Part shown: positions 1,307 through 18,555 of the stretch, piece by piece
How positions within the stretch are numbered: position 1 is the first letter of the stretch
How the letters are laid out: every line of letters begins with the position of its first letter
Assembly (NCBI RefSeq): GCF_000172995.2
Contig: NC_014731.1
Location: forward strand, 1 to 32,000
DNA length: 32,000 nucleotides
Source of the DNA: Halogeometricum borinquense DSM 11551
GTDB taxonomy: Archaea; Halobacteriota; Halobacteria; Halobacteriales; Haloferacaceae
Reading direction: 5' to 3'
Notes under the pieces: generated by a model
Database searches by the model: none
The model's input: only the letters and a program-made list of their open reading frames with translations
Told to the model about the DNA's origin: nothing
Program-made: the position numbers and the translations under genes

Positions 1307-1512
1307 ACAGTAGTCCGCTTATGCTATTGAGGGAAACCATCCTGTTATCTGATATTTGAACGATACGACTATACTTTCTTTGCTACTGTCGCCAGACTGT
1401 TCGTCAGCACGTGTCGATTGATACACCTATGATTTCGGGCTTCAATCCAACGAGTGCTCCTGAAACCGTGGCTAGATCGTCAATAGTGAAGGGGTACTCA
1501 TTCCCGCCTCCA

Positions 1513-1533
1513 CCCCCGTTTCCACGTGGGACC
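1513..1533. promoter_or_regulatory. ORB-like dyad with C-string (possible origin-recognition-box-like site)
   Basis: The sequence is CCCCCGTTTCCACGTGGGACC, a C5 run directly followed by GTTTCCAC and a CCACGTGG palindromic core. As I recall it, the complement of the archaeal ORB is a G-string plus GTGGAAAC. The site lies in a 770-bp ORF-free, AT-rich stretch. Related GGACCACGT copies occur at 1567-1575 and 1648-1656. No orc1/cdc6 gene is adjacent. Confidence 0.25.
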
Positions 1534-1788
1534 TATCCGAAAATACAATTGACTGTGCTTCGTTCGGACCACGTCTTACCGGGATAGCAGGAGTGGTGCG
1601 ACGGGCTTCAAACGCCGGTACCTATGACGCTCCATCTGGTAGATAGGGACCACGTGTATTAGAATTTGTCCTTCTGTATCTCAATTTACTCTCATGTACT
1701 GTCTAATACATGCGGTATCTACTTCAATCCTACAAGGGTTCGTCTGTAACCATAGCTAAAGTCAAATTCAGAGTCAAGTATGAACTCC

Positions 1789-3543
1789 TCACATATCTTC
1801 AAAGAGATGCGAAGCATGGGATGTATCCAGATCAACTCCGTGGGCGTGGTATCCAAGCTTACTGGCTACCTTCAAAGTCGTTCCTGAGCCAGCGAAGGGG
1901 TCAAGAACCCGACCAGGTGAGTAGTCAGCATCACACTCGCACTCAGTCCACCGCACAGTTTGTCTCTGTGGGAAGGTGAACTCGCGGAAATACCCTTTCA
2001 AAACTTCCTTAGCGTCGTCAGCCAATTCTTGAGTCGATTTCTTATTCCGACCTGCGCCAGTTTGGTATTCCTTGGCTTTTCCAGCATCCGAAATGCCAAC
2101 TGCTTGTACAGCTCTTAAATGCTCAAATCCGAGTTCAGACTCGACAAAACGCTTAATCGCCCTCTGCGCCTGTCCTCGACGAGGGTTCAATTTGTAATAT
2201 TCGTATTTGATTAGATGGTTTACTAATTCTTCTGGATCATCGAGGTCGGAGATAAGCTCGTCTTTGTTCTTGTTGGTCACACGACGACGAGGGGCACCGC
2301 AGTCTTCACAGACTTGTGAAGGGCAAGCCAGAGTTAAAGCTCTACGAGCAAGATCTTCGGGGAATGGTGCTAAATGGTTTCGAGTATTTCTGTCGTGGCT
2401 CATCGACCAAACATCGATAGGGTTCGCTCCGGTCTGGTACAAATCAATGTATGCTTCTCTATCGTAGTAGTAGTCGTCTCGATCAAGTACGAGATGGAAG
2501 ATGTGTTCGTGCCGAGGTGCGAGCCTGTCGTCGACTGGTGATGGGACACCATTCTCTTTTGTCCAAATTATATCATTTCGCACAGTCCAATCCCCCTTCC
2601 GCGCTTTCTCAGCGAACAATCCGGGGATACCTTGCAGAGATTTGTATCGATAGGTATCGCCGATATTCAAAAATACAGAACCTGTTGGCTTCAAGAACTT
2701 TTTCCACTGATCCAATATCGTCACTAAGTTCTCTACATACTCTTCAGGATCGCTCTCTTGTCCAAATTCTTCGTCATCTTCGTCTAAATACTCTCTTTTT
2801 CTCCAGTAAGGAGGTGACGTGATTATAAGATCAACAGATTCCTCCTTTACCGGTATCTCAGAACGAGAACGTTCTTCAGCCGTGTTGAAGGGTGTGATGT
2901 ATCGGGCATCTGCCTCATGCAGCTCTAGTTCGGTCTCGTTTTTTTCGTGTTTGAATCCGTGTATCCTACGAATCTCTTCGGTTGGGGGGAGACCGAACTC
3001 TCGAAGTCTAAAGAAAGTCTTGAGTTCCTTGTCGAGATCTGCTACAACGTCTGGATGACTCTCTAACCGTTCGCGGACACGAAGATCAATTGTCTCCTCA
3101 GGCGTATTTGTCGCACTCTCATCTCCTAGGCGAACGAGGTTCGTATAGAACTCCCGGAACGAGACCTCGTGCGGAAAAGATACGCTGTCCGTGTTAATGT
3201 GCGTCTCGATTATTTCGATTAGACCATCCTTCGACCAGAGGCCATCTTCTCTCAGTTTGTAGTGATCTTTTATTTCGTCATAGAAGTAGTGTGAGAAGGC
3301 AACGTTTTTTTCGAAGTAGTCCTTGAGGCTATGGCTGTCTAGGGTCGCCGTGTCAACACCACCATCGTTCTTTACTTGGGCCGAGAAGCGACTAAGGTCG
3401 TCCTTCTCTGGATCTCGAAAATTTGTTGGGATGAGTATCTTATCTAAGTTATTGGAAAATATATTTGCAAATCTGCGCACATTCTCGTCAAAAAGATAGA
3501 AATCCTTCACCTCGGTTGGGTGACTGAGATCCTGATTAGACAT
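1789..3543 (-). CDS. Beta-class N6-adenine/N4-cytosine DNA methyltransferase with a long N-terminal extension and a Cys-rich insertion
   Basis: Motif IV DLIITSPPYW (SPPY = 2806-2817) precedes motif I DPFAGSGTT (FAGSGTT = 1876-1896), which is the beta-class permutation. IIWTK and APFPEDLARR are typical N6_N4_Mtase-family strings. I prefer the ATG at 3541-3543 (MSNQDLSHPTEV, 584 aa) over the track start at 3672, because the extra 43 codons overlap the neighbouring gene's upstream region and are Ser/Lys-rich junk. Codon usage is AT-rich. Confidence 0.88.
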   Translation of the reverse strand: MSNQDLSHPTEVKDFYLFDENVRRFANIFSNNLDKILIPTNFRDPEKDDLSRFSAQVKNDGGVDTATLDSHSLKDYFEKNVAFSHYFYDEIKDHYKLREDGLWSKDGLIEIIETHINTDSVSFPHEVSFREFYTNLVRLGDESATNTPEETIDLRVRERLESHPDVVADLDKELKTFFRLREFGLPPTEEIRRIHGFKHEKNETELELHEADARYITPFNTAEERSRSEIPVKEESVDLIITSPPYWRKREYLDEDDEEFGQESDPEEYVENLVTILDQWKKFLKPTGSVFLNIGDTYRYKSLQGIPGLFAEKARKGDWTVRNDIIWTKENGVPSPVDDRLAPRHEHIFHLVLDRDDYYYDREAYIDLYQTGANPIDVWSMSHDRNTRNHLAPFPEDLARRALTLACPSQVCEDCGAPRRRVTNKNKDELISDLDDPEELVNHLIKYEYYKLNPRRGQAQRAIKRFVESELGFEHLRAVQAVGISDAGKAKEYQTGAGRNKKSTQELADDAKEVLKGYFREFTFPQRQTVRWTECECDADYSPGRVLDPFAGSGTTLKVASKLGYHAHGVDLDTSHASHLFEDM

Positions 3544-3698
3544 TGGGTACTTTCCAGTCCTCATCGAGCTTGAAGACTTTGACGAAACGTTCGGTGACAT
3601 CGATGTTAGACGGTTTGATAGGATTCTTATTTTGTGTAATTGGAGAGAAAATTCTATACGGCCGTACTTCATCGGTCAATAGTACCCAGACAGGAGCC
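3544..3698. promoter_or_regulatory. Shared divergent promoter region between the methyltransferase and the GHKL ATPase
   Basis: 155-bp AT-rich spacer between the two head-to-head start codons (3543 minus, 3699 plus). It contains TATA-like strings such as ttctatac near 3652-3659. No transcript data, so individual boxes are not assigned. Confidence 0.4.
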
Positions 3699-5963
3699 AT
3701 GGCCCAATCGAATCTATCTTACAGCGACCTTGCTTCGAGCCTATACTCAGATTGCCACACAGAACAGGATGTTACGGAATTCCTCCATGACCAGCTCAAT
3801 GATGCTGAATGGGTAGCGCTTGGCAATCAGTCAAATAACTACAGTATCGTAGAGAACCAACAAAGTGAACCAATGGCCGCTCTCACGGAACTGATCGTCA
3901 ACTCAATCGACGCCATCATTCTCAAACAATTTCACCAAACTTACGGAGACGACTTTAGAGGAGACGAATTCAAGAATCTCCACGAGGCCGTTGAAGGAGT
4001 AGTTGACCTTGATACTGCTGAGATTAATCTAACGGCAACTGGTGAACAAAACGGTCCCTTATCTCTCTCTCTTTACGACAATGGATGCGGGCAACCAAGA
4101 GACCGCTTCGAAAAAACATTCTTGAATGTCCTTACTCCTGGAGAAATTAAGCAGGATTACGACTTCTTACAAGGAAAATATGGGATGGGTAGTACGGGTG
4201 TCCTCCCATTTTGTGGCGAGCGAGGATATAAATTCATCGCGTCAGCGGCTTACGACGAAGAACAAAAGTGGTCGTGGTCGCTGATTCGCAAGAACCGGGA
4301 GAAGACGAGGTACGAATATCTAAAAATCGACGGAGAGATTCCAACGTTCGAGGGAAAGTTCGCTGAAGAGAGTTCAGGGACATTTGTCAAAGTATTCGAC
4401 TATGATGCGGAGTACAAATCGAACATTACGAAGTACTTCCGCGGGATGCTTGAGCGGTATTTAGTTAACTCTCCGATTCCCATTACATTGAGAGAAACGC
4501 GGTATAGTAGTAGTTGGGGAGACCAACACACGCGAGGACTACGTCCCCGATTAAACGAGTCACCCGAAGTCGTCAAAGACGTCGATAAATTCGAACACAC
4601 GTTCGATAACGATGTCTTAGGGACAAAACAAATCGAGATCTATCTTATTGAATCGAAAAAGGAACTTGAAGAGAGAGGAATTAATCCGGACCGAAGAGGG
4701 GAGTTCGTTGGTGGTAAGCAGAACGACCATGCGATACTGTTCACTGTGAATGGGCAAACACACGGTGATCAAGGAGCTACTTTCCTCAAGACTCGCTGTA
4801 GCTACAACCGTGTCGGAGGAGACTCTATTGTGATGATTGACTTCTCCGACGTGTCGGACTCGGATATCGTCGACTTATTCAAGCCCTCCAGAGACCGTCT
4901 CCAAAACAAGGACCCTGCAAAGGCTCTGAAGTCGGAACTCGAGGAGATTCTCATCGACAACGACATGCTGGATCGGGAGGAACAGCGACGTCGAGACCGA
5001 ATAACAAAAGAGGATGCTGACGACCTATCAGAAGACATTTTGGAGGATCTACTTGAGAGAAACCCGAGTATCAAGAGATACCTTGAGACCGGTGAAAAGA
5101 AGCCTCGAGTAAAAGATGGAGACGGTAAGCAGGAACTCGAAGAGTACGACGGGGAATTCTTCCCCGACCGCTTCTTCGCCATCAAGAAGTTCCGCTCACG
5201 TTCGGACTACGAAATCTATTCCGAAGACGACGAGGATGGAGAACGCTTCAGGTTTAGAGTCCCAGTCAACTCAGACAAAAGGGTTCGGTTCGAACTAAAC
5301 GCCGAAGACGACTATCTCACGAGGAACATGGAACGGGGGGAAATCAAATCTTCCATACCCCCTGTACTGAAGACTAAGCATCTCAAGCATGGAATATTGA
5401 ATCTGACATTCGAACCACCAAGTGGGGCAGAAGTTGGGGATCAAGTACCGATTCGGCTTCAAGTCTCTCCAGCAAAACCACAGGCTCTCTCTCTCAACGT
5501 CGTGATGGAATGTACCGAGCCGGTTGAAGAAGAGCCAAAACTAAAAAAGAAACCCGACAAGACACCAGCAGAAGGGTTCGAGCTACCCCACAATCAGTGG
5601 GTTGATGAAGAAGAATGGGATGACTTCGAATTCGACGAACAAAGCATCGTCTCAGTACAACCTCGACCTGGTGAAAGTGGAATGGATATCTTCATCAATA
5701 GAGACGCTGCTCCTCTCCAGAACTATCTGAAGAGACACAACCTGAAGGACTCCGGGAAGACGATGGTGATGGAACGCTATCGACTTGCTACTGTATTCTT
5801 CTCAGCGACGCAGTACATTGAGCTCCGGCAACAGTATCAGGAGCATGAGGACTGGGAAGAGATTGAATTAACTCGGGTGGTAGAAGATGGAATGCGGGGA
5901 ATCGGTCAGGTCTTGTTGGACCTTATCATCGACGATGAAACACTCGACAAGGTGACCTACTGA
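3699..5963 (+). CDS. GHKL (Bergerat-fold) ATPase, MORC/paraMORC-like, with a large uncharacterised C-terminal region
   Basis: Three Bergerat boxes occur in the canonical order: N-box ELIVNSIDA (3888-3911), G1 DNGCG (4077-4091) and G2 GKYGMGSTG (4173-4199). I prefer the ATG at 3699 (MAQSNLSY, preceded by caggag, 754 aa) over the track's TTG at 3543. After the ATPase come about 500 residues with a very charged stretch (DREEQRRRDRITKEDADD, KKKPDK) and no motif I recognise. Confidence 0.8.
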   Translation: MAQSNLSYSDLASSLYSDCHTEQDVTEFLHDQLNDAEWVALGNQSNNYSIVENQQSEPMAALTELIVNSIDAIILKQFHQTYGDDFRGDEFKNLHEAVEGVVDLDTAEINLTATGEQNGPLSLSLYDNGCGQPRDRFEKTFLNVLTPGEIKQDYDFLQGKYGMGSTGVLPFCGERGYKFIASAAYDEEQKWSWSLIRKNREKTRYEYLKIDGEIPTFEGKFAEESSGTFVKVFDYDAEYKSNITKYFRGMLERYLVNSPIPITLRETRYSSSWGDQHTRGLRPRLNESPEVVKDVDKFEHTFDNDVLGTKQIEIYLIESKKELEERGINPDRRGEFVGGKQNDHAILFTVNGQTHGDQGATFLKTRCSYNRVGGDSIVMIDFSDVSDSDIVDLFKPSRDRLQNKDPAKALKSELEEILIDNDMLDREEQRRRDRITKEDADDLSEDILEDLLERNPSIKRYLETGEKKPRVKDGDGKQELEEYDGEFFPDRFFAIKKFRSRSDYEIYSEDDEDGERFRFRVPVNSDKRVRFELNAEDDYLTRNMERGEIKSSIPPVLKTKHLKHGILNLTFEPPSGAEVGDQVPIRLQVSPAKPQALSLNVVMECTEPVEEEPKLKKKPDKTPAEGFELPHNQWVDEEEWDDFEFDEQSIVSVQPRPGESGMDIFINRDAAPLQNYLKRHNLKDSGKTMVMERYRLATVFFSATQYIELRQQYQEHEDWEEIELTRVVEDGMRGIGQVLLDLIIDDETLDKVTY

Positions 5964-6287
5964 AGCTAACTCCAAACAACTCAACCCATAGGATTAGTCT
6001 GTAGCCCATGCAAATACACAAGTATAGAGCTCCGTAGACATGGTATTCAAATGAATATTTCCGTCGAACTCCCGGGGTTTGGGAAGATCGGTGTCGGCAG
6101 TAACTATCGTCCGGCCAATCCGGACACTACCCAATCATACCTTTCGACTCCGCTAACATCGCCTATCCTACCGTGTCAGCTACCGATTCCAACCACAATA
6201 AGAAACAGTCACTCGTCGTCTTCGACAGGCTCCAGCGTCGAGGCGTCGAAAAACGAGGTGACGACAACAGCGAGTCCTTGAGAACGT

Positions 6288-7916
6288 TTACTCTGGGATC
6301 GTTACTGTCACCGTTTCGGTATCGACGACTTCACCATCTCGGATGAATTTGATTGTGAGTTGGCGGTCCCCTGATGTGACCGTGAGATCCGGATGGAGAT
6401 ATTCAGTCGTGCTTGCTCCCGGTTTGATTTGTGATTCGAACGAGAGTGATTCGGTCGAACTCACGCCGTCGATCTCGTACCGAACCGAATCGTACACCAG
6501 CACCGAATCCCCAGTATTCTGAACGTCAAGGGTCAGGTCAGAGAGTTCCGGGGTATCGCTGTTATCGTTCCCGAACACGGTCGTGTCCACACTATTGATT
6601 TGAGCACTCGGGCCGTCGAATTCTTGACTACTGCTCGCCGTGACAGAATTTCCAGCACTAGTTAGTTCGAGTTTTACCGTCTCCTCGCCGCCATTGCTGA
6701 TGAACAACGCGGAGCCAGCACCCCAGCTATCATCCACAATCTCGTACTCTTCGGTCTCACCGCCAGCGAGCGATTGGATAGTCTGACTTTCCTTCACTTC
6801 ATGACCGTTGACTATCAGGCTTGCAGAGAAGTCGGTGGCAACATCACCGTTGTTCGACAGGGTAAATGTCGCACTAGTGAGCCGCCCATTCTCCCACACG
6901 GGAGTGAACGAATCGATACTGAGACTTGCTGAGGAGATTTCACGAGTGAACTCTTGGGTCGTGAACCCAGATGGGGAGTTCGCAATCGCCTGAAGTTGAA
7001 TTTCTCCCGACGTCTCTGGTTCGTAGATCGTTCCGCTGTAATGCGTAATCTCGTACTGGACGCTCTGTCCGGGTGAAATAGACTCGTTGTACGTCGAGGC
7101 AAGTACTTCGTCACCACGCTGGATACCCGCCCACGCTGAAGCCGTGAGGTCGCCTTGGTTTTCGACGGTTACCCGTGTCGATTCTAGCGATCCACCCTCC
7201 CAAACGGGTTCGACGTTCGTGATTGCCAAGTCGGGCCCCTCAAATGTCTTTGTGAACGAACTGGAGAGTTCATCTGCGGATGTAGTGACCGTGACCGAAC
7301 CGTGGACCTCACCGGCTGAGTGGATCGAGACTTTTCCGTAGGACGGAGTGATCGAGAATGACTCCGTCTCACCGGGCATGACCCAGACGTACGGACTCGA
7401 CTGCATTTCCGAGTCTCGAGCGTTGACGACCGCCTCAGAGATCTTCACGGGGAAATCACCGTTGTTGTTCACCGTTACGTTGACTCGTTGAAGTGTGTTC
7501 CCAGACCAAGCTGCTTCCGTAGTCGTGATTGTGGGTGACGCACCTTCGTAGGAGGCAGTCTTTGTCGACTTTGTCTCACCACCCTGCTGGAGGATAATCG
7601 TGTAATTTCCCGGACGGGGGTCAACGAGACTGAACGCCGCCACTTCTTGATCCGGCTCCAGCGTCGTCTTTTGGATCACTTGGCCGGACGGTCCCTCAAG
7701 GAGAGCGTCTGAATAGTCGTCTACAGTGTAGTTGAACATCAAAAGCGGCTGATCCTCATACTCTCCAAGCCGAAGATCAGATACGGTTGGACCGCTACCC
7801 AAGCCTGTCGCATCGAGTGCCGCCCCGCAGCCCGCAAGGGGTGCGAGTATCAGGAGAGTAGAAAAGGCGACCGCGAGTCGTCGAGTATCTGCGTCCGCTT
7901 GCATTGATAATCTCAA
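6288..7916 (-). CDS. Tat-type lipoprotein with about five tandem CARDB/Ig-like modules
   Basis: The N-terminus DTRRLAVAFSTLLILAPLAGC carries a twin-arginine motif plus a lipobox Cys. A roughly 100-aa unit recurs with the CARDB-like signature: VNVTVNNNGDFPV, TRVTVENQGDLTA, ATFTLSNNGDVAT, LTLDVQNTGDSVL. The start could instead be the second Met at 7904. Confidence 0.75.
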   Translation of the reverse strand: MRLSMQADADTRRLAVAFSTLLILAPLAGCGAALDATGLGSGPTVSDLRLGEYEDQPLLMFNYTVDDYSDALLEGPSGQVIQKTTLEPDQEVAAFSLVDPRPGNYTIILQQGGETKSTKTASYEGASPTITTTEAAWSGNTLQRVNVTVNNNGDFPVKISEAVVNARDSEMQSSPYVWVMPGETESFSITPSYGKVSIHSAGEVHGSVTVTTSADELSSSFTKTFEGPDLAITNVEPVWEGGSLESTRVTVENQGDLTASAWAGIQRGDEVLASTYNESISPGQSVQYEITHYSGTIYEPETSGEIQLQAIANSPSGFTTQEFTREISSASLSIDSFTPVWENGRLTSATFTLSNNGDVATDFSASLIVNGHEVKESQTIQSLAGGETEEYEIVDDSWGAGSALFISNGGEETVKLELTSAGNSVTASSSQEFDGPSAQINSVDTTVFGNDNSDTPELSDLTLDVQNTGDSVLVYDSVRYEIDGVSSTESLSFESQIKPGASTTEYLHPDLTVTSGDRQLTIKFIRDGEVVDTETVTVTIPE

Positions 7917-8395
7917 ATGTCCGGACAGTGTCTTGAATCTGTTGAGATAATATCCAAATTGATAATCTCAATCGCCTCTGTACTAGCAATAGGTCCGAAA
8001 AGATGTCCCATGTTCGTATCACACAATTTCAAATTTTGGATTGACTTCGGCCAATTCGGACACCACCCGCCCAATCTTTTCGCATCCACTAGCCACGGCT
8101 AACATGCAGTGCCCACAGACACTACCGCAAATCAGCTACTCGCTGTCGTCGAGCGCTTCGACTTCGGACGCCGCAAGTGCGACGGTGTGCCGACCGAATG
8201 TGTTACCCCACAGGGTTTGTCTGAAACTGGCCACTCGAAGCATATGAAACGGAGGTCCGATGAACGTCGGAAACCCGGCCCCTGTCACGTGCTTCGCCAC
8301 CGTCACAGTCAGTATAGTTCGTCAAGAAGACGCCATATGGTGAACACAGATCCGGCGACCCTAGCCTTCCTCAGTGGCTTAGTGGTCTTCGCCCT

Positions 8396-8629
8396 TTGCT
8401 TCCTCGTCAACGACACACTGAAGTCTACGAGTTAGGTGTCCGGGCCGGGTTGTTCTCGCAGGACGTTGCCGACCGACTCGAAGAACTCTGGATCGAGAAC
8501 CGGTCGGAGTCGTACTATCGAACTGGAATCGCTGGCGAGTATCGCGCGCAAACGCTCCTCTCGCTTGCCGGCACGCTCCACGAGGAAGTCGTCGCACTGA
8601 CGCGGACGCAGGACTGTCTCTGTGACTGA
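8396..8629 (+). CDS. Hypothetical small protein (weak)
   Basis: 77-aa ORF with a TTG start. The acidic, helix-like segment EVYELGVRAGLFSQDVADRLEELWIENRSESYY looks protein-like. The 5' end is unclear, and a short upstream ORF in another frame (MVNTDPATLAFLSGLVVFALCFLVNDTLKSTS) hints at a frameshifted remnant. Confidence 0.25.
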   Translation: MLPRQRHTEVYELGVRAGLFSQDVADRLEELWIENRSESYYRTGIAGEYRAQTLLSLAGTLHEEVVALTRTQDCLCD

Positions 8630-8867
8630 CCGAGAAGAACCACTGTGACTGACACACAGCAGGCGTCCGCGAGACGGGGATCAAGGCATCCCGACGAACC
8701 AACAAAGACACCCGTGGATTTTAATCCAAATCTGACAGAACTACAAGTGTTGGTGGAGACGTTCGCGGTCACAGTGGCGAGGGTGAGCCGGTTAGGACCA
8801 CGAGTACGTTCACGCTCGGCATGGCGAATCTGCACTTTCACAACCGAGTCCGATTCCCCGATATCAA

Positions 8868-10904
8868 ATGACAGACGATACCCCAGACGACCCCGACGGC
8901 GAAGCACAACGAGCCCAGAAACTCCGAGAGACAGTTGATCCCACCACGGCGACGGACGACGAAATCGAGGCCCTGTGTGCGCTCCTCGACGGCCGCCACG
9001 GGCGCTCAGACGCCCACGCAGCCCTGTCGAAGATCTCGTCCCACCCCAACTGCACACGACGTGTCGCAGTGGCCCTCCAGCCGTACCTCGTCCACGAGAC
9101 CAGACGAACACGGGACGAGGCCCTCGACATGCTGACGTGGATCGCACGGACGGACCCGAATGCGCTCGATACCACTATCGAGTGGCTCCTGGAACACTTG
9201 GACACCGAGGACGAGCACATGCGTGACACCTCCGTGACATCCCTCAGGAAACTCGCCGAGGCCGAGCCTGTCCTCCTTCGCCCGCACGTGGACGCTCTCA
9301 TTGGCTCTCTCGACGACGACGCTGTGCGGGCCAACGCAATCAGCCTGTTGTCGACGATTTCACACGCCTATCCAGAAGCGATTGCTCCTGCCAGAGACGA
9401 GTTGATAGCACTGTCTGCGGACGAGACGATCGACGCCAGTGCGATCCCGTCGCCGCTCGGCACCGTCGCATTGGTACGGCCAGATATCATCGATCCTGTC
9501 GTCGAGATGCTGCGAGAGGACCTCGCTGCGGCGGAGCGAGATCAAGCGCGGATCGGGATTGGGAGTGCACTCGGCAGGATCGCTGTGGCATATCCCGAGT
9601 CGGCCCCGATGGTGGTCGAGGAACTGCTGTCACTCGCCGAGACGGATCCTGACGATCGGTCCCCTGATATCGACCGTAGTGTCGTACTCAGTTTTCTCGG
9701 CGGCATCGGGGTCGCACACCCCGAGACGGTCGTTCCCGAACTGGACCGTCTCAGGGCACTCCTTGACGATGACAACCGAATGGTGCGCTCGTCCGCGGTG
9801 GAGACTCTCGGAAACATCGCAACCGTTCGGCCTGCTGCAGTCCGGCCGGCTATCGATGACATTGTGGCGAGATTCGACGACACCAGCGAAGATCTGCAGT
9901 TCGACGTCGTGACGGCTCTCGGGAAGATCGCAGCAGCTGATCCTGAGATCGCGCCGCGCGTCGTCGCGAAGTTGCACGACTGGTTCGAAGACGACACGGC
10001 AGAAGACGAAGCAGTCGGGAGCGACGCGACAGAATACGGGCTGTTCGACTTGACTGGCAGCGTCGAAGACGAGAATGCGGCGACTCACGACGACTTCGAG
10101 TGGCAACTCCAGGAGGACATCATCCGTGCCTACGGCCGAATCGGTGCTGCTACTCCCGACGCCCTCGATCCCGTGATGGACGAGATTCGAGCCTGCCTCG
10201 CTGACGAGAACCTCTCAGCAGAGGCTGCCGCTGCGCTCGGTGAGATCGGCGGTGTTCGTCCCGAGACAGTGGCTCCCGCTGTTGAGGATCTCCAAGAGTT
10301 GCTTGCTGAGGGCCCCTACTGGAACCGGAGAGCGGCCGCCAGCGCGCTCGGAACGATTGGGGCCGCAGCCCCCGAGATGGCCGAACTCGTCGTCGACGAT
10401 CTGCAGCACCGTCTCGCGGACAGCAACTATCGTGTGCGCGCGGCGGCTGCCGAGGCACTTGGCACGATTGCCACCACGGATTCGGACGTGGCCGCACGCG
10501 TCAGCGAGGAGGTACAGCTGCTCCTCGACGACGATGAATGGAAGGTCCGTGCGGCAGCGCTCGAAGCACTCGGACAGATGGGTGCTGCGGATCGAGACAC
10601 AGCCGAGCGTGTCGTCGAGGATCTGCAGACCGGCCTTCGCGATACCGATTCGGACGTTCGGCCGTCGGCAGCGAACGCACTGGCAGCCATCGGCGTTTCC
10701 CAGCCAGTGCTCACCGCCACGGCCGTCGAAGCGCTCGAGTCCCGATTCGAATGTGACGAGGAGTATCTCTTCGTCCGATCGTCGATCGCCGAGGGATTGC
10801 AGGCGCTCAACACCGCCCACTCCGATGCTGTCACAGTGAGCGACACCGAACTGCAGCGAGTCGCCGACGCTGACGTGAACTTGGTGGTGGAGGAGAGTCA
10901 GTAG
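8868..10904 (+). CDS. HEAT-repeat (PBS-lyase HEAT-like) protein
   Basis: 678-aa acidic ORF with an ATG start. HEAT/PBS-type units recur: VRSSAVETLGNIA, RRAAASALGTIGAA, VRAAAAEALGTIA, VRAAALEALGQMGA, VRPSAANALAAIG. Spacing is about 31-38 aa in the C-terminal half, with more degenerate units in the N-terminal half. Confidence 0.85.
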   Translation: MTDDTPDDPDGEAQRAQKLRETVDPTTATDDEIEALCALLDGRHGRSDAHAALSKISSHPNCTRRVAVALQPYLVHETRRTRDEALDMLTWIARTDPNALDTTIEWLLEHLDTEDEHMRDTSVTSLRKLAEAEPVLLRPHVDALIGSLDDDAVRANAISLLSTISHAYPEAIAPARDELIALSADETIDASAIPSPLGTVALVRPDIIDPVVEMLREDLAAAERDQARIGIGSALGRIAVAYPESAPMVVEELLSLAETDPDDRSPDIDRSVVLSFLGGIGVAHPETVVPELDRLRALLDDDNRMVRSSAVETLGNIATVRPAAVRPAIDDIVARFDDTSEDLQFDVVTALGKIAAADPEIAPRVVAKLHDWFEDDTAEDEAVGSDATEYGLFDLTGSVEDENAATHDDFEWQLQEDIIRAYGRIGAATPDALDPVMDEIRACLADENLSAEAAAALGEIGGVRPETVAPAVEDLQELLAEGPYWNRRAAASALGTIGAAAPEMAELVVDDLQHRLADSNYRVRAAAAEALGTIATTDSDVAARVSEEVQLLLDDDEWKVRAAALEALGQMGAADRDTAERVVEDLQTGLRDTDSDVRPSAANALAAIGVSQPVLTATAVEALESRFECDEEYLFVRSSIAEGLQALNTAHSDAVTVSDTELQRVADADVNLVVEESQ

Positions 10905-10918
10905 GCAGTCCACTGGTG

Positions 10919-11104
10919 TCAGGACACGACTCGAACCAACCAGGTGTCGCTGTGCGCGGGGTCAGCCAGCAATTTCTGCACGACAGTCCCAAGAAGGATC
11001 GCGTGTCCGAAGAGCGGATCGTCGTCGCCGTGCCAGAACGTAAACTCACCGTCAGGATGAATGGTGACCGTGTTCACCTTCGTTCTTTCTGCAATCGTTA
11101 CCAC
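10919..11104 (-). CDS. Hypothetical 61-aa ORF (weak)
   Basis: ATG-initiated ORF convergent with the HEAT gene. The translation [34 protein letters not shown] is protein-like, but no motif was recognised. It may be a fragment. Confidence 0.25.
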
Positions 11105-11280
11105 TTCTGAGTAGACTTGGACCCCGAGCTTCTGTCTTCATTGGGCTGGGAACAGAGATTGGCACGTTTGGTGCTGGAGTCAGCCTATCCATCGTTTACC
11201 TCACGTATCGGAAAATAGGAGCCGCTTCAATGACCCACTCTTGGTTCAACTGGAAGAGAAAGAACTGATTGAGTCCCGAA

Positions 11281-11715
11281 TCAAACACGGTCGAAGTGAC
11301 TGTAAATCTGGTCTGTTGTTTGGAGAGGAGCGTGTCGAAGTCTCTTCTTCATATCGTAGATGTGCTTGTCTTCGTAGGTCATCATCCGATAAACGACCGA
11401 GTGACGAAGTGAGTGAGGGGTCACGTCGTCTGGGGACCCTCGTCCACCCATGACGTTGTACGGACGGATGTCGTCAGCGAGTTCGCGGGTTTCTGTAGAA
11501 AGGCTCCAAACTCGGCACTGTGATGTCATTCAGATTGTCAATGTCGCGTTCATCGTACCAACGCAAAAAATGTCCAAGACGGTATCTGTGAACTTGCCGC
11601 CGACAGGGACACCGTAGCGATTACAGGTGAGCCGGCTGCGATGGCGAGCGCGCTCGAAATTGTGATGAGTAGATGAGAGTTCTTGCTGAGGGTCTGACTC
11701 GAAATCGAACCTCAC
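11281..11715 (-). pseudogene. Tyrosine recombinase / phage-type integrase remnant (C-terminal catalytic region, in-frame TGA)
   Basis: ORF 11281-11529 encodes TPHSLRHSVVYRM (HxxR box) and RLRHAPLQTTDQIYSHF (box II with the catalytic Tyr). ORF 11530-11715 is in the same frame and separated only by a TGA at 11530-11532. No N-terminal domain exists, because an unrelated ABC fragment starts at 11728. Confidence 0.7.
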
Positions 11716-11727
11716 TGGTGGAGTGTG

Positions 11728-11984
11728 TCAGTTCACTGGATCGAGATCGTGACTGGAGAAGAACACCGCCGCGCCGCGGTCGGCTTCCTCGCGGACGATT
11801 TCCCGAAGCGTCCTGACACCAGTGGGGTCAAGGCCGGTGGAGGGCTCATCGAAGACGAGGAGATCCGGTGACCCGACCAGAGCCATCCCAAGCGCAAGGC
11901 GCTGGCTCATCCCTTTCGGTAGCCGCCTACCGGCTGGTCGGCCGCGTGGGCTACGCCGACCCGTCCGAGGACGGTGTCGGGGTC
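11728..11984 (-). pseudogene. ABC-transporter ATP-binding protein internal fragment (frameshifted, truncated at both ends)
   Basis: The fragment reads VLGRVGVAHAADQPVGGYRKG, then a frameshift at about 11910, then MSQRLALGMALVGSPDLLVFDEPSTGLDP. This corresponds to the signature (YSKGMxQRL-like), Walker B (LLVFDEP) and D-loop, followed by the H-loop FFSSH. The Walker A region and the C-terminus are absent. Confidence 0.75.
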
Positions 11985-12014
11985 GTCGTCTGCGTCTTTC
12001 AGTTCAATCGCTGT

Positions 12015-12430
12015 TTCGACATTGTCGTTGACAAGCTTCGGTACATCAACGAGTACACGAACGACCTGAAGTAAATGCGGGGAATGTCGAAAACGGAGTA
12101 TGTTGACGATATCGTCGTCCAACGGGCGGTTGAGAGAACGTTCATGAATCTCATTCAATCCTGTATTGATCTCGACCAGCATATTCGTGCTTCAGAGAGC
12201 CTCTCCAAGTGGGACTGCAAAAAAAAGAGATCGAGTCGCTTGGGAATGCAGGCATACTCTCACCCAACGTTCAAGACCAGATGGAAGAAGCCGTCGGGTT
12301 TCGAAATATCCTCGCCCATCGGTACGGTGATGTGAACCACGACGTTGTCTACGCTGTGCTACACAACGACCTCCACTGGTTCGACCAATTTCAGCAGGAA
12401 ATCGCGCAGTGGTTTCAGCAACGAGACTAA
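12015..12430 (+). pseudogene. hepT: HepT (DUF86, HEPN-domain) toxin remnant with an in-frame TAA and a frameshift in an A8 run
   Basis: The C-terminal part AVGFRNILAHRYGDVNHDVVYAVL carries the HEPN Rx4H motif. The N-terminal part DIVVDKLRYINEYTNDLK*MRGMSKTEYVDDIVVQRAVERTFMNLIQSCIDLDQHI has the HepT helix pattern but is broken by a TAA at 12072-12074. The frame changes inside aaaaaaaa at 12219-12226, and an A9 run would restore WDCKKKEIESLGNAGIL. There is no ATG at the 5' end and no MNT partner gene. Confidence 0.8.
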
Positions 12431-12537
12431 CCCTGTCACCGAAACCGTTCACGCGAGCAGAGTGTGCAGGCATGGACGAGACGGGCGAGCAGGACTACCG
12501 GCGCATCCCCAGTCACAATCACCGCCGCTGCTTGAGC

Positions 12538-14343
12538 TCAGGCGAAATCGGTGAGGTTCGTCGCCGTCAGGTTCTCCGTATCCTCTTCCAGTTCGTGGTC
12601 AAGGGAACTCCGACTGGGGACCTCAAACTCGACAACCGGAGTGTCCGACGAGACAATGTCGATGATCGTGTGCAGCTCATCCATGATCCCGACCGCACCG
12701 TCATGTGTACATCCCGTGATTGTACACCAAGCTCGTGATCGCGTGATCGCCACGAACACTTCGTTTCGCGCCTGCACAAGCTCGCGATACGGGTTTGTGA
12801 TTGCATTGTTGAGTCCAACGACATACACCGAGGCAGCTTCATTTCCTTTTGCGAGATGAATCGTCGAGATCGTTACCTCACCCGGCCGCGAAAATTCGGT
12901 TCTGTCACCTTCCCACGCACAGGTCGCTCCTAAATCATGGGCGCGCAGCAATGACTGAAGCTGCTGACCGCGATCCTTTGCGTCCAGCCCAAGCGGGACG
13001 ACGAGGATACGCTCCGGAGGTAAGCCCTCCTCACGAACATCAGCCACAACCTGGTCAACGACCCAGTCGAGCTCTGCAGCTGGATCGTCGAACGCTTCGG
13101 CCGACACGAATGGCCCGGCTGTATCAAACGTAGAGAGTGGATGTGGTGAGTTTGCTTCAGGCCGCTGAAGACGTGCCTTACTCCCTGTTTTCCGGAAGTC
13201 ACCATCGACGTCATAGCCGAGATTCTCCCAGCCGTCTTGCCGCGTAATTGCTTGGACAGGACCGCCATCACGGAGGAGTCCCATCCCAAGGACGTGTGCA
13301 GTCAACAGAACCTCCAGGGGTGCGCGATAGGATTTCCGCATGATGTGGCTTTTTTGCACCCCGTTTGAATACGACCCGCTCAGGTCAACAACAGGATCGC
13401 CGGTGTCGTCAACGCCGAAAATTTCCTTGGGGCTCGGGGCACGCAAACTGTGGAGATTTTGTGCCTCGTCGTAGCCCCAAATGAGCCGGTTGGACGAGTC
13501 AAGTGCAGCGAGACACATATTGAAGAAGTGCGGACCGAAGTCTTGTGCCTCATCGACGAGAATCGCATCAAAGAGGTCTGGGATGTCCCCGGTCGCAAGC
13601 AGTTCAGCCGCCACCGCTTCCTGGGGATCAGTGTCGGAGCCGAATTCTGCACGAGCATCGGTCACCGAACGGAAGGTAGCGTTTGGAGTTGCCTCTGCGA
13701 TTCGTTTGTATATGCCCTCGCCAGTTGTGTGGCCACCCCACCCGTGGATGATCTCGATGGACGAATCACTCTCCGCCAGTGATTGTCCGTTCGAGAACCG
13801 CCTGTAGAATCGTTCCGTGAGATCGGTAATGTGATCGTAGAGACTCTTCGTTTGGAACGTCAGCGCGATGGTCCAGTCCTTGTGATCGACCGCCATTTTC
13901 GCCGCCTTCATGGCAAGGAGGACGGTCTTCCCAGACCCAGCGATCCCTCGAATTTGCTGCGGTCCAGGTGGGATCCGCATGCCGATCTTTTCCTGTTTCA
14001 AATCGAACTTCGCAAGCTGACTCGTGACGTGTTCGTAGTAGTCGCGTCGCGTCTCAGGATTTGCGGGCGGCGACATACTGATATCGCTGATTGCCTGTCC
14101 GCAGCTGAGGACAGCACGTGCTGTGTCATATTCGGCTGAGGTTAACGGGTCAAACGTGCGGATCGCGTCAAGTTGCTCCCGGAGTGCCACAGGCGTTAAC
14201 TCATCACCTAACAGCACGCGAGGGGCGCTTGGCCCCGTAAAGCCGCGTGCCTCCCATTCCTCGCGGGTGATATTCGGGAGGACAACAAACGGATTCATCG
14301 GGATTGCTACCTGTCCACCGTCCAAGAGCTCTGGTTCGTCCAT
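12538..14343 (-). CDS. Superfamily-1 (UvrD/Rep-like) helicase-family ATPase
   Basis: 601-aa ORF. It has Walker A GIAGSGKT (13924-13947), motif II ILVDEAQDF (DEAQD = 13540-13554), a UvrD_C-like ISTIHLAKGNEAASVYVVG and motif VI VAITRSRAW. About 125 N-terminal residues have no recognisable motif, and no nuclease motif was seen. Confidence 0.85.
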   Translation of the reverse strand: MDEPELLDGGQVAIPMNPFVVLPNITREEWEARGFTGPSAPRVLLGDELTPVALREQLDAIRTFDPLTSAEYDTARAVLSCGQAISDISMSPPANPETRRDYYEHVTSQLAKFDLKQEKIGMRIPPGPQQIRGIAGSGKTVLLAMKAAKMAVDHKDWTIALTFQTKSLYDHITDLTERFYRRFSNGQSLAESDSSIEIIHGWGGHTTGEGIYKRIAEATPNATFRSVTDARAEFGSDTDPQEAVAAELLATGDIPDLFDAILVDEAQDFGPHFFNMCLAALDSSNRLIWGYDEAQNLHSLRAPSPKEIFGVDDTGDPVVDLSGSYSNGVQKSHIMRKSYRAPLEVLLTAHVLGMGLLRDGGPVQAITRQDGWENLGYDVDGDFRKTGSKARLQRPEANSPHPLSTFDTAGPFVSAEAFDDPAAELDWVVDQVVADVREEGLPPERILVVPLGLDAKDRGQQLQSLLRAHDLGATCAWEGDRTEFSRPGEVTISTIHLAKGNEAASVYVVGLNNAITNPYRELVQARNEVFVAITRSRAWCTITGCTHDGAVGIMDELHTIIDIVSSDTPVVEFEVPSRSSLDHELEEDTENLTATNLTDFA

Positions 14344-14462
14344 GAAGAACTTGCGCAGTGCAAAGCCCTGTCGCCGTGCCTGCTCGAGTGGTGTGGATTG
14401 AGATTGCGACGTGCCGCGCAGATGCCACGTCTCGCCAGCGATGCGGTCAATTTGATCGATAG

Positions 14463-15206
14463 GGCACTGTCTAGTTAAGCCAGTTTGAGGAATGAGCAGG
14501 TCGTTGAGTTAATTGGGTAGAATGCTCGCAGACCTGCTCAGCAAGTGCTTTGCGACGGATTATGAAGAAACTTGGGAGCGTGAGCGGACGGCGACACCCG
14601 TCAGGGTGTTCGCCGTCCAGCTCCACGCGACCGGGTGTTCACTGAGAGAAACAAAACAGATTCTTCGCTATCTCGGCGTTGAACGCTCTCACCAAGCTGT
14701 TTGGCAGTGGGTACATCGGCTGGCTGACAGCGGTCACAAGCCGCCTGAGGCGGAGCCGAAGCGGGTTGCGGTTGACGAGACCGCTGTCAAAATCAATGCG
14801 AGTGGTCTTGGTTGTACGCCGCAATAGACATTGAGACAAAACTGATTCTCGATGTCGAGTTGTTTGGACGACATGGTACCGATCCGGCGGCTGCGTTTCT
14901 CCATCGACTCTCGGAGAAACACGATCTCTCAGATGCTGTGTTTCTCGTTGATGGCTACGGCTATCAGACTGCCCTCTCTCGATTAGGAGTGAGCGGTCGG
15001 CTTGACTACGTCGAGCGAAACCTCATCGAAAAGTGGTTTCATACCCTCAAAATGCGAGTCGACCGCTTCCATAATTCGTGGGTGGGCAGTCACGGAAGCG
15101 TCCGCGAGTGGTTCATACAATTTGCGCAATATTATAATTTTTATCGACCGCATCAATCGCTCGATGGACGAACGCCAGTTGAGGAGGTCACTAACTAGAC
15201 AGTGCC
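14463..15206 (+). mobile_element. IS6-family insertion sequence (ISH-type), copy A, transposase frameshifted, no target-site duplication
   Basis: 744 bp, bounded by 15-bp terminal inverted repeats: GGCACTGTCTAGTTA at 14463-14477 and its reverse complement at 15192-15206. The flanking 8-mers differ (atcgatag versus tcttagac). It is near-identical to the copy at 16968-17712. Confidence 0.9.
14513..15198 (+). pseudogene. IS6-family DDE transposase, frameshifted
   Basis: Two overlapping ORFs (14513-14827 and 14812-15198) together match the intact 228-aa copy. At about 14794-14800, copy A reads caatgcgagtgg where copy B reads caacggtgagtgg. That 1-nt deletion turns VAVDETAVKINGEWSWLYAAID into KINASGLGCTPQ followed by a stop. 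Confidence 0.9.
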
Positions 15207-15346
15207 TCTTAGACAAGAATGTCAAATATCTGTGGAAACATAAATGGCCGGCATAGATAGTTGCCGACTCGGGGACAACTTCCTGCAATTGTTTGGACGC
15301 TCTACGATACTTTTTCGATGATCTGTTACGCCACTACTGACATAAG

Positions 15347-15740
15347 ATGACCGACAGTGGTGGAGACGAACCAGCGGCATCGTCGGCGTACGGGCCGTTG
15401 CTTGACGAGAGAAACGGTGCTGAGAGGCTGACCCGTTGTAGTCACAGACGTTCGGGAGTTACAGGCAATCGACGCGGATCTTGCTGCCCACTACGTCCTC
15501 GGGAACGACATCGACGCTGGGGATACCACGGTATGGAACGACGGCGACGGATTCGATCCGATCGGGGATTCCGGTTCGAAACAAGATCAGTTTCGTGGCT
15601 CGTTTGACGGTCGCGGCCACGAGATCCGTAATTTGACGATCGACAGGCCCAATCGAAACGCCGTCGGTCTGTTCAGTGTCGTCTCGGGCGTACGGATCAA
15701 GGCTGTCGATCTTGTCGCCGAGTCGATGGCCGCGGATTGA
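15347..15740 (+). pseudogene. Fragment of a GLUG-motif-type surface protein (N-proximal region only)
   Basis: The frame open over 15432-15740 has no start codon, so it is absent from the ORF track. It translates to VVTDVRELQAIDADLAAHYVLGNDIDAGDTTVWNDGDGFDPIGDSGSKQDQFRGSFDGRGHEIRNLTIDRPNRNAVGLFSVVSGVRIKAVDL. This is the pattern that precedes GLUG repeats in large bacterial and archaeal surface proteins (LQxI...YxLxNDID...PIG...FxGxFDGxGHxIxNL...VGLF). An upstream ATG ORF starting at 15347 is in another frame. The fragment ends after about 100 aa. Confidence 0.5.
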
Positions 15741-15872
15741 CGTCAGGTAGTCACGACTTTTTGACAATCTTACTGATTTTCACATGAAACTACCCACTGC
15801 TCACTTCTTCAGCCATATGTGTTGTGAATACGATTTCTTTATTCACAAGGTAGCTAAATAGTCAATCAGTAA

Positions 15873-16073
15873 ATGGTTTGGTCCCTCCCGGAGACACGCG
15901 CCGAGCGAATGCTACAACTCATCGCAGGCGTATTGGTCGTAGTAGCAGTCGCTGATTTTCTGGAGTTGATAGACTTGTTCTCGTACTGGACATACGTATT
16001 TTTTATTAGTACAGTATCAATTATTTATGATATCATTGGCACCAGGAAAATGCTCAGAGAGGTGAGTAGTTGA
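15873..16073 (+). CDS. Small two-TM membrane protein (hypothetical)
   Basis: 66-aa ATG ORF in an AT-rich stretch. It has two hydrophobic segments (MLQLIAGVLVVVAVADFL and WTYVFFISTVSIIYDIIG). Confidence 0.35.
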   Translation: MVWSLPETRAERMLQLIAGVLVVVAVADFLELIDLFSYWTYVFFISTVSIIYDIIGTRKMLREVSS

Positions 16074-16374
16074 GGCAAAATCCGGATACCACGCGCCCAA
16101 CCAACCAATCGTTTTGCTGTACTGCTTACTAGCTATGAAGAGACTCACCGAATTCACAACATTGTCACCGGCCAGTGCCGCATCCGTTACGAATCGTTCA
16201 TGCACGGAGCCGAGGCAGGTCCACCACTGCACCGTCGCCCCGTTCCTCATCGCGAACCGCCGCGTGCTGTCCCGTCGAATTGGCGGAAAGGTATGCCGAA
16301 ACAAGTCAATAGCGAGCGAAAAAGACTTCGCTTCTGTCGGAACTGTTTACTCCGTATCGTCCCTTGGCCAACCA

Positions 16375-16635
16375 ATGCGAGTCCTCGACCGGAAACGATA
16401 CTCCTACGTCTTACTGGCCCGCGACGGGGAGTGGATTCTCACGTTCTTACTCGGCGGCCCCGTCGAGCGCGACGTCTCCGTGCGATTGACGCCCGTAGAG
16501 ATCACTGCAATCGAAGCCGGTGACTCGTCGGCCGCCGACCTGGTCGAGAAATTCAGCGCTGACCTATCGGCCACCGAGGACAGACAGATAACTCCCACCG
16601 TCTGGCCTGCAAAGGACGCCGAGAGTGTGTCGTAG
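16375..16635 (+). CDS. Hypothetical 86-aa acidic protein
   Basis: An internal ATG at 16375 in the 16114-16635 ORF gives MRVLDRKRYSYVLLARDGEWILTFLLGGPVERDVSVRLTPVEITAIEAGD. This has haloarchaeal-like acidic composition, whereas the upstream part of the track ORF looks non-coding. Confidence 0.4.
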   Translation: MRVLDRKRYSYVLLARDGEWILTFLLGGPVERDVSVRLTPVEITAIEAGDSSAADLVEKFSADLSATEDRQITPTVWPAKDAESVS

Positions 16636-16693
16636 TGCCGCAGGTCGTTCCAACAGCGCTCTTCGGTTTCGATCGAGGCGTGTCTGTCCAGCG

Positions 16694-16927
16694 TCAGGAT
16701 GAAGTTCCTCCCTCCACAACCTGAAACTTCTCGATGTGGATCGCCGAGATGCAACGGAACACCCGCTTTCGCCCAGATTCGTCGACAGGGTCGGTTGCCG
16801 TCTCCGTGACATCGGTTGGGGTCCCGCCAGTATCAGTCGGAGTTCCCCCGTTATCGTCGTTCGAACTCAGGCACCCGGCGAAAGCTGAAAGTGAGAGTGT
16901 CGCAATGAAACTCCGTCTATATTTCAT
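16694..16927 (-). CDS. Small Tat-type lipoprotein, possibly frameshifted or truncated
   Basis: From the ATG at 16925-16927 the sequence reads MKYRRSFIATLSLSAFAGCLSSNDDNGGTPTDTGGTPTD. It has a twin-arginine RRSF motif, a lipobox AGC and a Thr/Pro/Asp linker. The ORF stops after 77 aa, and a protein-like continuation (RNFILTLDRHASIETEERCWNDL) lies in another frame. Confidence 0.45.
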   Translation of the reverse strand: MKYRRSFIATLSLSAFAGCLSSNDDNGGTPTDTGGTPTDVTETATDPVDESGRKRVFRCISAIHIEKFQVVEGGTSS

Positions 16928-16959
16928 ACTCTCAATAATATCAACTGTACTTTCAATCT

Positions 16960-16967
16960 GCCTATTT
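16960..16967. repeat. Left 8-bp target-site duplication of IS6 copy B (GCCTATTT)
   Basis: GCCTATTT lies immediately outside the left terminal repeat and is identical to the 8-mer at 17713-17720. Confidence 0.85.
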
Positions 16968-17712: not shown

Positions 17713-17720
17713 GCCTATTT
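17713..17720. repeat. Right 8-bp target-site duplication of IS6 copy B (GCCTATTT)
   Basis: Identical to 16960-16967 and immediately outside the right terminal repeat. Confidence 0.85.
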
Positions 17721-17897
17721 TCTTGCAACAAATGTTCGACATGCAAACGAACTATCACCGTGAGGATGCGAATCCGGGACGGTGCGTTTCGGAAAAACCC
17801 CTGCCCGAATGTATCGTTCGGGACCGAAAGCGTGCCGTGACACCGCGAAATCGGGCACCGTCTCGCGATCCGTCTCGGTGGGAGAATACGGGGCTTC

Positions 17898-18302: not shown

Positions 18303-18336
18303 TAATTTTTCACTCGGCTATAATATTTATCCTTAG

Positions 18337-18546: not shown

Positions 18547-18555
18547 CTTCAGAGT

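Follow-up and report, generated by a model that had tools for sequence, protein, structure and literature searches.

In the genome of the haloarchaeon Halogeometricum borinquense DSM 11551, a gene for a DNA methyltransferase and a gene for a GHKL-type ATPase stand head to head at positions 1789-5963 of NC_014731.1, and the question that they raise is whether the two form one module and what such a module would do. An earlier note, made from the sequence alone, had read the pair as a methylation-coupled defence module whose ATPase was MORC-like and which had no recognisable nuclease. To answer the question, we analysed positions 1-32,000 of NC_014731.1 (the window) together with relatives of both genes. 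We lean, with modest confidence, towards the reading that the pair is a restriction-modification-like defence module on a horizontally acquired low-GC island, since the family to which the ATPase belongs usually stands beside DNA-modification genes. The defence-module idea holds up at the level of the family, where gene linkage points to such a function, whereas the MORC label and the role given to an N-terminal extension of the methyltransferase do not.

The identity of the ATPase is weak by sequence and firm by modelled structure. The protein (100% identical to hypothetical protein C499_05940 of H. borinquense DSM 11551) matched a single Pfam model, PF13589 (HATPase_c_3), at 19.3 bits, under the cut-off of 25. 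It has no NCBIfam, PADLOC or PHROGs match, the bacterial and ~900-amino-acid (aa) relatives tested have none in PADLOC or NCBIfam either, and comparison with PDB sequences, by single sequence and by profiles including one of 79 sequences, gave nothing useful. We built an AlphaFold2 model from 79 homologues, with a mean predicted local distance difference test (pLDDT) of 88.5 and a predicted template modelling score of 0.73. Foldseek aligned this model to Hsp90, ParE/GyrB, TopoVI-B and the N-terminal fragment of MutL in the PDB with probability 1.0 and E-values of 1e-12 to 1e-8, over ~400-540 columns that cover the transducers of GyrB 43K, MutL LN40 and TopoVI-B. Given these matches and the length of the alignments, residues 1-400 are predicted to form a Bergerat ATP-binding domain followed by a transducer, so that the model bears out the Bergerat fold proposed from the sequence and adds the transducer to it. 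The three boxes of the fold, ELIVNSIDA (3888-3914), DNGCG (4077-4091) and GKYGMGSTG (4173-4199), all on the plus strand, lie where the earlier note had placed them, as do the methyltransferase motifs and both genes, to the base. Among 155 family members, E64/N68/D71 of motif I, D127/G129/G131 of motif II and G159..G164 of motif III are invariant or nearly so, and the same is true of K231, N351-G-Q353-x-H355 and R398-D-R400, the last two of which lie in the transducer. The NGQxH stretch may be the gamma-phosphate switch loop, a counterpart of the 'QTK' loop of GyrB.

No nuclease was found behind this N-terminal half. The segment at 4950-5300, in which 52% of the residues are charged and which had been put forward as a sensing or effector part, is predicted to be a helical linker (residues ~401-470) without a separate globular domain; a low-confidence stretch (residues 472-480) follows it in the model. 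A separate model of residues 481-754 (pLDDT 89.9) matched only immunoglobulin (Ig), fibronectin-III and Rib domains when Foldseek was run against the PDB and a viral structure library, and the end domain, residues ~627-754, found no solved or viral structure there beyond the Ig part. The conserved residues of the C-terminal half (P489, P522, Y539, R542, P630, W640, N667 and D669) do not, as judged by sequence, resemble a metal-dependent nuclease site. The absence of a recognisable nuclease, claimed from the sequence, is therefore seen at the fold level too in the libraries searched, the C-terminal half included. The end domain is a candidate dimerisation or partner-binding domain. Additionally, two close homologues (P0002 and P0006) carry the name 'regulator of replication initiation timing' in their sources; the charged coiled linker probably gave rise to it through a spurious match, and the name is better not carried over to other records.

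The ATPase belongs to a large family of uniform architecture. When 1.84 billion representative proteins, clustered at 50% identity, were scanned in full with HMMER, 3,091 clusters matched at E<=1e-3, 1,148 of them at E<=1e-30, and among the 150 matches listed most are full-length, with 720-920 aa. Members occur in Halobacteria, Bacteroidota, Chloroflexota, Nitrospirota, Poribacteria, Planctomycetota, Verrucomicrobiota, Actinomycetota and Pseudomonadota, in one Asgard archaeon and in others, while none was found in 50,697 phage records. RefSeq calls them 'hypothetical protein' or 'ATP-binding protein', and the family is unnamed in Pfam, NCBIfam, PADLOC and PHROGs. A literature search whose scope left out most subscription-journal papers found no paper on it.

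To see what the family keeps company with, we surveyed 160 loci in which the match could be placed, 80 from genomes and 80 from metagenomes (the metagenomic matches listed include few haloarchaeal ones); in 155 of them the ATPase open reading frame (ORF) has at least 700 aa. The family is linked to four kinds of DNA-modification module. The most frequent is the Ssp-type phosphorothioation gene set, present at 68 of the 160 loci and identified by SspC (E = 0), DUF4007 (SspB; E 2e-62), PAPS_reduct (SspD) and Aminotran_5; seven of the 155 loci, mostly short contigs, hold only a partial set with a cysteine desulfurase or DndB-like gene. At 20 of the 160 loci, which form a separate bacterial clade, the ATPase gene is directly adjacent to an N6_N4 methyltransferase gene with motif I before motif IV. 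A methyltransferase of the window type occurs at three loci (L001, L002 and L089), and four further relatives outside the 160 also show its motif order. A C5 cytosine methylase accompanies the ATPase at four loci, of which L009, L010 and L095 belong to a haloarchaeal subfamily of ~900 aa (30-36% identity) and L107 lies elsewhere in the tree. In the L010 and L095 operon (~6300-19400), a C5 methylase gene and an HhH-GPD, glycosylase-like gene precede the ~900-aa ATPase, and DrmA (E 1e-157), DrmB (1e-51) and DrmC (2e-13) come directly after it, which makes the operon DISARM-type. In L009 these gene clusters recur in another arrangement, so that DrmABC accompanies three of the four C5 loci. Neither the phosphorothioation link nor the DISARM link was foreseen in the earlier note.

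In 16 phosphorothioation loci the ATPase gene comes directly after the cysteine desulfurase gene. What stands beside it otherwise varies within this clade: a 478-aa Mrr_cat protein at five loci (on the opposite strand in L042; in L015, at 12391-13827, its gene starts on the last base of the ATPase stop codon), a DndB-like protein with a 170-aa protein, GmrSD_N with SIR2, or a second HATPase_c_3 protein. The adjoining Mrr_cat gene suggests that some members work with a separately encoded nuclease. Across the family, PglZ, OLD/AAA_15, McrBC-type, SIR2, Mrr, toxin-antitoxin and integrase genes make up the company of a defence island, and Huta_1710 (39% identity) is flanked by genes for an MmeI-type methylase, an OLD-family protein and a DEAD/Helicase_C/MZB protein of 1,764 aa. 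The 21 clear pairs of N6/N4 methyltransferase and ATPase genes are separated by -9 to 83 bp in 20 cases and by 128 bp in L006. Ten of them are convergent, seven are in tandem with the methyltransferase upstream, three in tandem with it downstream, and one, L006, is divergent; four further tandem-downstream pairs lie beyond the 21, and the window is the second divergent case. The head-to-head arrangement that first drew attention is thus present in the window and is not the conserved layout of the family. In a neighbour-joining tree of the ATPases, the partner type is coherent within clades and switches several times across them, so the ATPase appears to have swapped its modification partner several times. 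The defence-module reading is supported by the way in which the family as a whole stands, at near-zero gaps and in any orientation, beside four marking systems that differ in chemistry, by its company in mobile defence islands and by its absence from phages, and the GHKL and transducer fold with its catalytic motifs invariant or nearly so in 155 members counts for it as well.

The clade of the window itself has seven other members, with 52-55% identity. One of them, L085, lies on a 3-kb contig that is too short to judge. In all six relatives with a readable context (L001, L002 and L165-L168, from Halohasta salina, Halarchaeum rubridurum, Halorubrum terrestre and three metagenomic contigs), a methyltransferase gene lies 12-47 bp downstream on the same strand. 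The expectation that methyltransferase and ATPase would be conserved as neighbours is confirmed by these six and by the 20-locus bacterial clade. Because the upstream genes vary among the six relatives, the module there consists of two genes. Their methyltransferases have ~360-380 aa and lack an N-terminal extension, so that the extension of the window enzyme (~240 aa in the earlier note, ~225 aa here) does not fit as a part of the module. The window differs in layout, being divergent where the family at large is mainly tandem or convergent, and the 324 bp downstream of its ATPase gene hold neither a tandem methyltransferase nor a remnant of one.

The window methyltransferase is 100% identical to the 'DNA modification methylase' of H. 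borinquense DSM 11551 and matches PF01555 at 128 bits (cut-off 26.7) and the PADLOC model MTase_II PDLC03316 at E 4e-103; the PADLOC check that had been proposed gave this model for the methyltransferase and none for the ATPase. Motif IV, SPPY at 2806-2817 (TSPPY, aa 243), precedes motif I, FAGSGTT at 1876-1896 (aa 550), and by this order together with the Pfam score the enzyme is assigned to the beta class. An SPPY motif favours N4-cytosine over N6-adenine, which points to N4-cytosine, possibly N6-adenine, as the product. Five cysteines of the catalytic part (C407, C412, C415, C535 and C537) are invariant and suggest a metal site. Over the catalytic part, the enzyme shares 45-51% identity with the short methyltransferases found in tandem with the ATPase in relatives. 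Residues 1-225 have no Pfam or PHROG match. Homologues of the long form, 13 proteins of 584-604 aa with 47-57% overall identity, share the extension, which is 36-37% identical in the four long-form loci compared (L081-L084) and was found by local tblastn only there among the loci compared; shorter homologues of ~360-470 aa lack all or most of it. Two of the three long-form homologues examined belong to elements that also encode an integrase and a D5-type primase, and in both a 685-aa and a 247-aa protein are encoded upstream of the methyltransferase; the third follows a GyrA-C-like beta-pinwheel protein. None of the three adjoins a relative of the window ATPase.

The 685-aa protein (L081:5132-7189 and L084:5137-7182) shows, by eye, the motifs ExxxNxxD, DNAGG and GSKGRG in GHKL order. 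Its signals as a GHKL ATPase are weak: HATPase_c at E 0.027, the CckA ATP-binding domain at E 0.5 and an hhalign probability of 0.3%. If it is truly a GHKL protein, the long-form methyltransferase travels with a different GHKL ATPase too. Additionally, another H. borinquense strain (CP048739.1; L169:6001-9936) has a short methyltransferase that shares 51% identity with the window enzyme, and behind it come a gene of 209 aa and genes for a McrB-like AAA protein and for McrC; the same methyltransferase family is thus seen to pair with very different restriction-type partners.

At the level of the DNA, the two window genes look alike and unlike their surroundings. The G+C content at third codon positions (GC3) is 0.47 in the methyltransferase gene and 0.52 in the ATPase gene, whereas nine further ORFs of the window lie at 0.59-0.79; this agrees with the A/T-ending codons reported before. 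Their total GC contents are 46.7% and 47.6%, and GC stays at 45-49% across ~1500-6000 and rises elsewhere in the window up to 66%. This common atypical composition suggests that both genes arrived together. With the first plausible ATGs, at 3543 for the methyltransferase and 3699 for the ATPase, the start codons face each other across 155 bp as described earlier; the public annotation starts the methyltransferase at 3564, seven codons earlier (591 aa), which leaves a gap of 134 bp. Both promoters presumably lie in the 155-bp region. Apart from ORFs overlapping the two genes, none of at least 80 aa occurs in 1020-1788 or 5964-6287. Direct or inverted repeats that might mark the ends of a mobile cassette were sought around the locus, and those seen were short and at chance level; PLSDB held no megablast match to the locus.

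How might such a pair work? The methyltransferase, here perhaps of the long form, would mark host DNA at a specific sequence. An N-terminal ATP gate followed by a transducer, a linker and a C-terminal domain is an order also known from MutL, Hsp90 and MORC, which makes a DNA-entrapping or partner-gating clamp the natural guess for the ATPase. Like MutL, Hsp90, GyrB and MORC, it would dimerise through its C-terminal domain, and the N-terminal gate would close on ATP to form a clamp that acts on DNA without the mark. Since no nuclease fold is present, the ATPase would stop the foreign DNA by entrapping or blocking it, or else pass it to nucleases encoded elsewhere. Relatives adjoin Mrr-type, DrmC (PLD), GmrSD-type or SIR2 genes, and in the larger loci the ATPase could pass DNA to the Mrr, DrmC or GmrSD-type nucleases, while in two-gene modules it would need to act on its own or rely on nucleases of the host.

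Such a module resembles several known systems in part. It shares with type II restriction-modification a tight two-gene cassette, an amino-methyltransferase, the occurrence of all orientations and a low-GC mobile context, but the partner is a 754-aa ATPase and neither protein has a recognisable endonuclease fold. The likeness to DISARM lies in the ~900-aa haloarchaeal relatives, whose genes immediately precede DrmA-DrmB-DrmC and have a C5 methylase gene in the vicinity, whereas the window module lacks DrmA, DrmB and DrmC and no PADLOC model of any kind matches the ATPase. Ofir et al. reportedly placed DrmE directly upstream of DrmA in class 2 DISARM in 2018, the place that the ~900-aa relatives take here. 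The Ssp systems, with SspB/C/D clusters around 68 of the 160 relatives, share the logic of a modification module joined to a sensing or effector module. However, the ATPase is not SspE (DUF262/DUF1524), a member of the phosphorothioation clade that was compared has no PADLOC match, and SspH is described with an FtsK/SpoIIIE-like C-terminal region that the window ATPase does not have; genes for SspB (DUF4007), SspC and SspD (PAPS reductase) are absent from the window. VcSduA, of Shedu type I-D (paraMORC3), is a GHKL domain fused to a DUF4263 nuclease (PMC12137116). It matches what is proposed for the window ATPase in that the GHKL part of a defence protein would gate an effector and a dimeric clamp is predicted. 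The difference is that VcSduA needs one gene, which carries the PD-(D/E)xK nuclease in fusion and has no methyltransferase partner, whereas the window ATPase is nuclease-free and linked to a methyltransferase.

The closest precedent is the work of Iyer, Abhiman and Aravind (2008), who placed prokaryotic MORC/paraMORC GHKL ATPases in restriction-modification contexts (PMC2292703), a paper that makes no mention of the Ssp phosphorothioation link ('PAPS', 'Dnd' and 'desulfurase' are absent from it). One could accordingly take the ATPase for a true prokaryotic MORC or paraMORC that works with the superfamily II helicase and nuclease of a restriction-modification system. The general architecture, GHKL with an S5-like transducer, is the same, and so are the patchy mobile spread, the linkage to DNA methylases and, in some relatives, the presence of superfamily II helicases, as where a C5 methylase occurs with the DrmA helicase or where Huta_1710 adjoins the DEAD/Helicase_C/MZB protein. 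We nevertheless regard this as very improbable. HATPase_c_3 stays under the Pfam cut-off and no Morc S5 model matches, so that the window ATPase fails membership by sequence, and it has no PADLOC mza or Shedu match. Its end, a linker, an Ig-like domain and an unmatched domain, is unlike the restriction-endonuclease fold (DUF4263) of paraMORC3 and the TIR domain of paraMORC4, and the window module contains neither helicase nor nuclease. Set beside the motifs of paraMORC2 (ExxxH in S5) and paraMORC5 (an HxH C-terminal domain), the family has an invariant NGQxH in its transducer, P630, W640, N667 and D669 towards its C-terminus, and no HxH among the positions at >=85% conservation. Since no MORC entry occurs among the best 50 PDB fold matches, 'MORC-like' is no apter a name than 'MutL-like' or 'Hsp90-like'; the ATPase represents, by its sequence and modelled fold, a separate, unnamed GHKL and transducer family. 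It is also conceivable that the ATPase serves the modification side, loading, targeting or regulating the DNA-modifying enzymes or reading their marks epigenetically, and would itself have no antiviral action. In phosphorothioation loci it stays constant while the adjacent nuclease or NADase genes (Mrr_cat, GmrSD_N with SIR2, DndB-like) vary, it lacks any nuclease fold, and solitary copies exist without obvious toxicity. We still consider such a helper unlikely, because type II methyltransferases and SspABCD work without a factor of this kind in characterised systems, the overlapping or near-overlapping methyltransferase-ATPase cassettes resemble toxin/antidote-style restriction-modification pairs, and the family keeps to mobile, patchy defence-island contexts.

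A different doubt concerns the window alone, where the juxtaposition may be secondary: an ancestral tandem methyltransferase would have been lost, and the long-form enzyme would be an orphan from an integrated virus or plasmid, either a mere neighbour or a replacement with another specificity. The short tandem enzyme of all six close relatives is missing here without a remnant, long-form methyltransferases (52-57% identity) occur in integrase/D5-primase elements without this ATPase, and the region, with its IS240-type transposase ORF and single CRISPR repeat, is mosaic in make-up. But GC and GC3 deviate alike in the two genes from the flanks on either side, the ATPase ORF is unbroken and keeps every motif, which is unexpected for a restriction-like gene left unprotected, L006 is divergent with a similar gap, and the long- and short-form catalytic domains are ~50% identical; this too we judge to be improbable, to about the same degree as the helper. 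Several observations nonetheless weigh against the defence module itself. No nuclease or other effector fold is present in the ATPase in the libraries searched, which leaves the killing step unexplained, and the window methyltransferase, a long form, belongs to a subfamily that is not the conserved one of its clade and that occurs elsewhere without this ATPase. Solitary ATPases are found at four Haladaptatus loci, with ~10 kb of flank on each side and no modification gene, two further haloarchaeal relatives have no modification gene nearby, and a clade of Thermodesulfovibrionales/Nitrospirota (L019, L021, L024, L028, L035, L047, L105 and L110) has neither a methylase nor an Ssp neighbour. The solitary members imply that the ATPase need not be self-toxic. 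The survey itself used crude ORF calling and BLAST clustering of neighbours, with representatives named by Pfam and PADLOC, and 32 of the 155 contigs are too short to judge. The Thermodesulfovibrionales/Nitrospirota clade has its own conserved neighbours, a 222-aa HAD hydrolase, an ~890-aa protein (at most loci), a putative radical-SAM-like gene and a 283-aa gene, which represent either plain vertical synteny or an unrecognised modification module.

The features of the pair and of its surroundings are collected in Table 1. The surroundings are a mosaic of mobile and defence-type genes. An intact single repeat of the clustered regularly interspaced short palindromic repeat (CRISPR) type, GTTACAGACGAACCCTTGTAGGATTGAAGT, lies at 1721-1750 on the minus strand, 38 bp beyond the methyltransferase stop codon, and matches Rfam CRISPR-DR24 at 39.1 bits (gathering score 35); a degenerate second copy (…GTTTCAGGAGCACTCGTTGGATTGAAGC) lies at ~1440-1468, ~280 nt beyond the first. 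The window holds no CRISPR array and no cas genes, and the lone repeat looks like a decayed array or a stray repeat. Additionally, the high-GC part of the window contains a 1,410-aa ORF (22738-26970, minus strand) with zero Pfam matches, which adjoins an 887-aa BTAD/DUF6584 protein (20019-22682, plus strand).

Table 1. The methyltransferase-ATPase pair, its predicted parts and other features of the window
Feature	Position	Strand	Size or basis
DNA methyltransferase gene, assigned to beta-class N6/N4, long-form subfamily	1789..3543	-	584 aa
Methyltransferase catalytic part, aa 226-584 and stop codon	1789..2868	-	motif IV TSPPY, motif I FAGSGTT
Methyltransferase N-terminal extension, aa 1-225	2869..3543	-	kept only in long-form methyltransferases
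Divergent intergenic region, AT-rich core ~3616-3660	3544..3698	.	155 bp; sequence reading
GHKL-type ATPase gene, unnamed family	3699..5963	+	754 aa; AlphaFold2 model, HMMER family
Predicted Bergerat ATP-binding domain, aa 1-245	3699..4433	+	Foldseek against the PDB, conservation
Predicted transducer-like domain, aa 246-400	4434..4898	+	fold matches, conservation
Predicted highly charged helical linker, aa 401-470	4899..5108	+	secondary structure of the model, pLDDT
Predicted Ig-like beta-sandwich domain, aa ~485-606	5151..5516	+	separate model of aa 481-754
Predicted C-terminal alpha/beta and helical domain, aa ~627-754	5577..5960	+	separate model, conservation
Small ORF, putative C-terminal end of tyrosine recombinase	11281-11529		
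HepT-like toxin gene	12209-12430		PF01934 in public gene call
UvrD_C-type helicase-like ORF	12538-14343		
IS240/rve-type transposase ORF	16976-17662		

The interest of the locus lies more in the unnamed ATPase family than in the single archaeal pair. GHKL ATPases in restriction-modification neighbourhoods were predicted in 2008, and few have been tested. A bolder reading, which we hold tentatively and regard as possible without being probable, would make the family a universal, nuclease-free 'reader/effector' for N4/N6 methylation, for C5 methylation with DISARM and for Ssp phosphorothioation, one that stops unmarked DNA by ATP-gated entrapment as a prokaryotic counterpart of MORC-type silencing, with the window pair as its minimal two-gene archaeal form. 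If the ATPase is a defence component, it would add a common missing piece to Ssp and DISARM-type loci, offer a minimal two-gene system for mechanistic work, and be among the few candidate modification-based systems tractable in haloarchaea. It would also provide a test case for immunity without a dedicated nuclease, which may bear on the origin of MORC silencing in eukaryotes.

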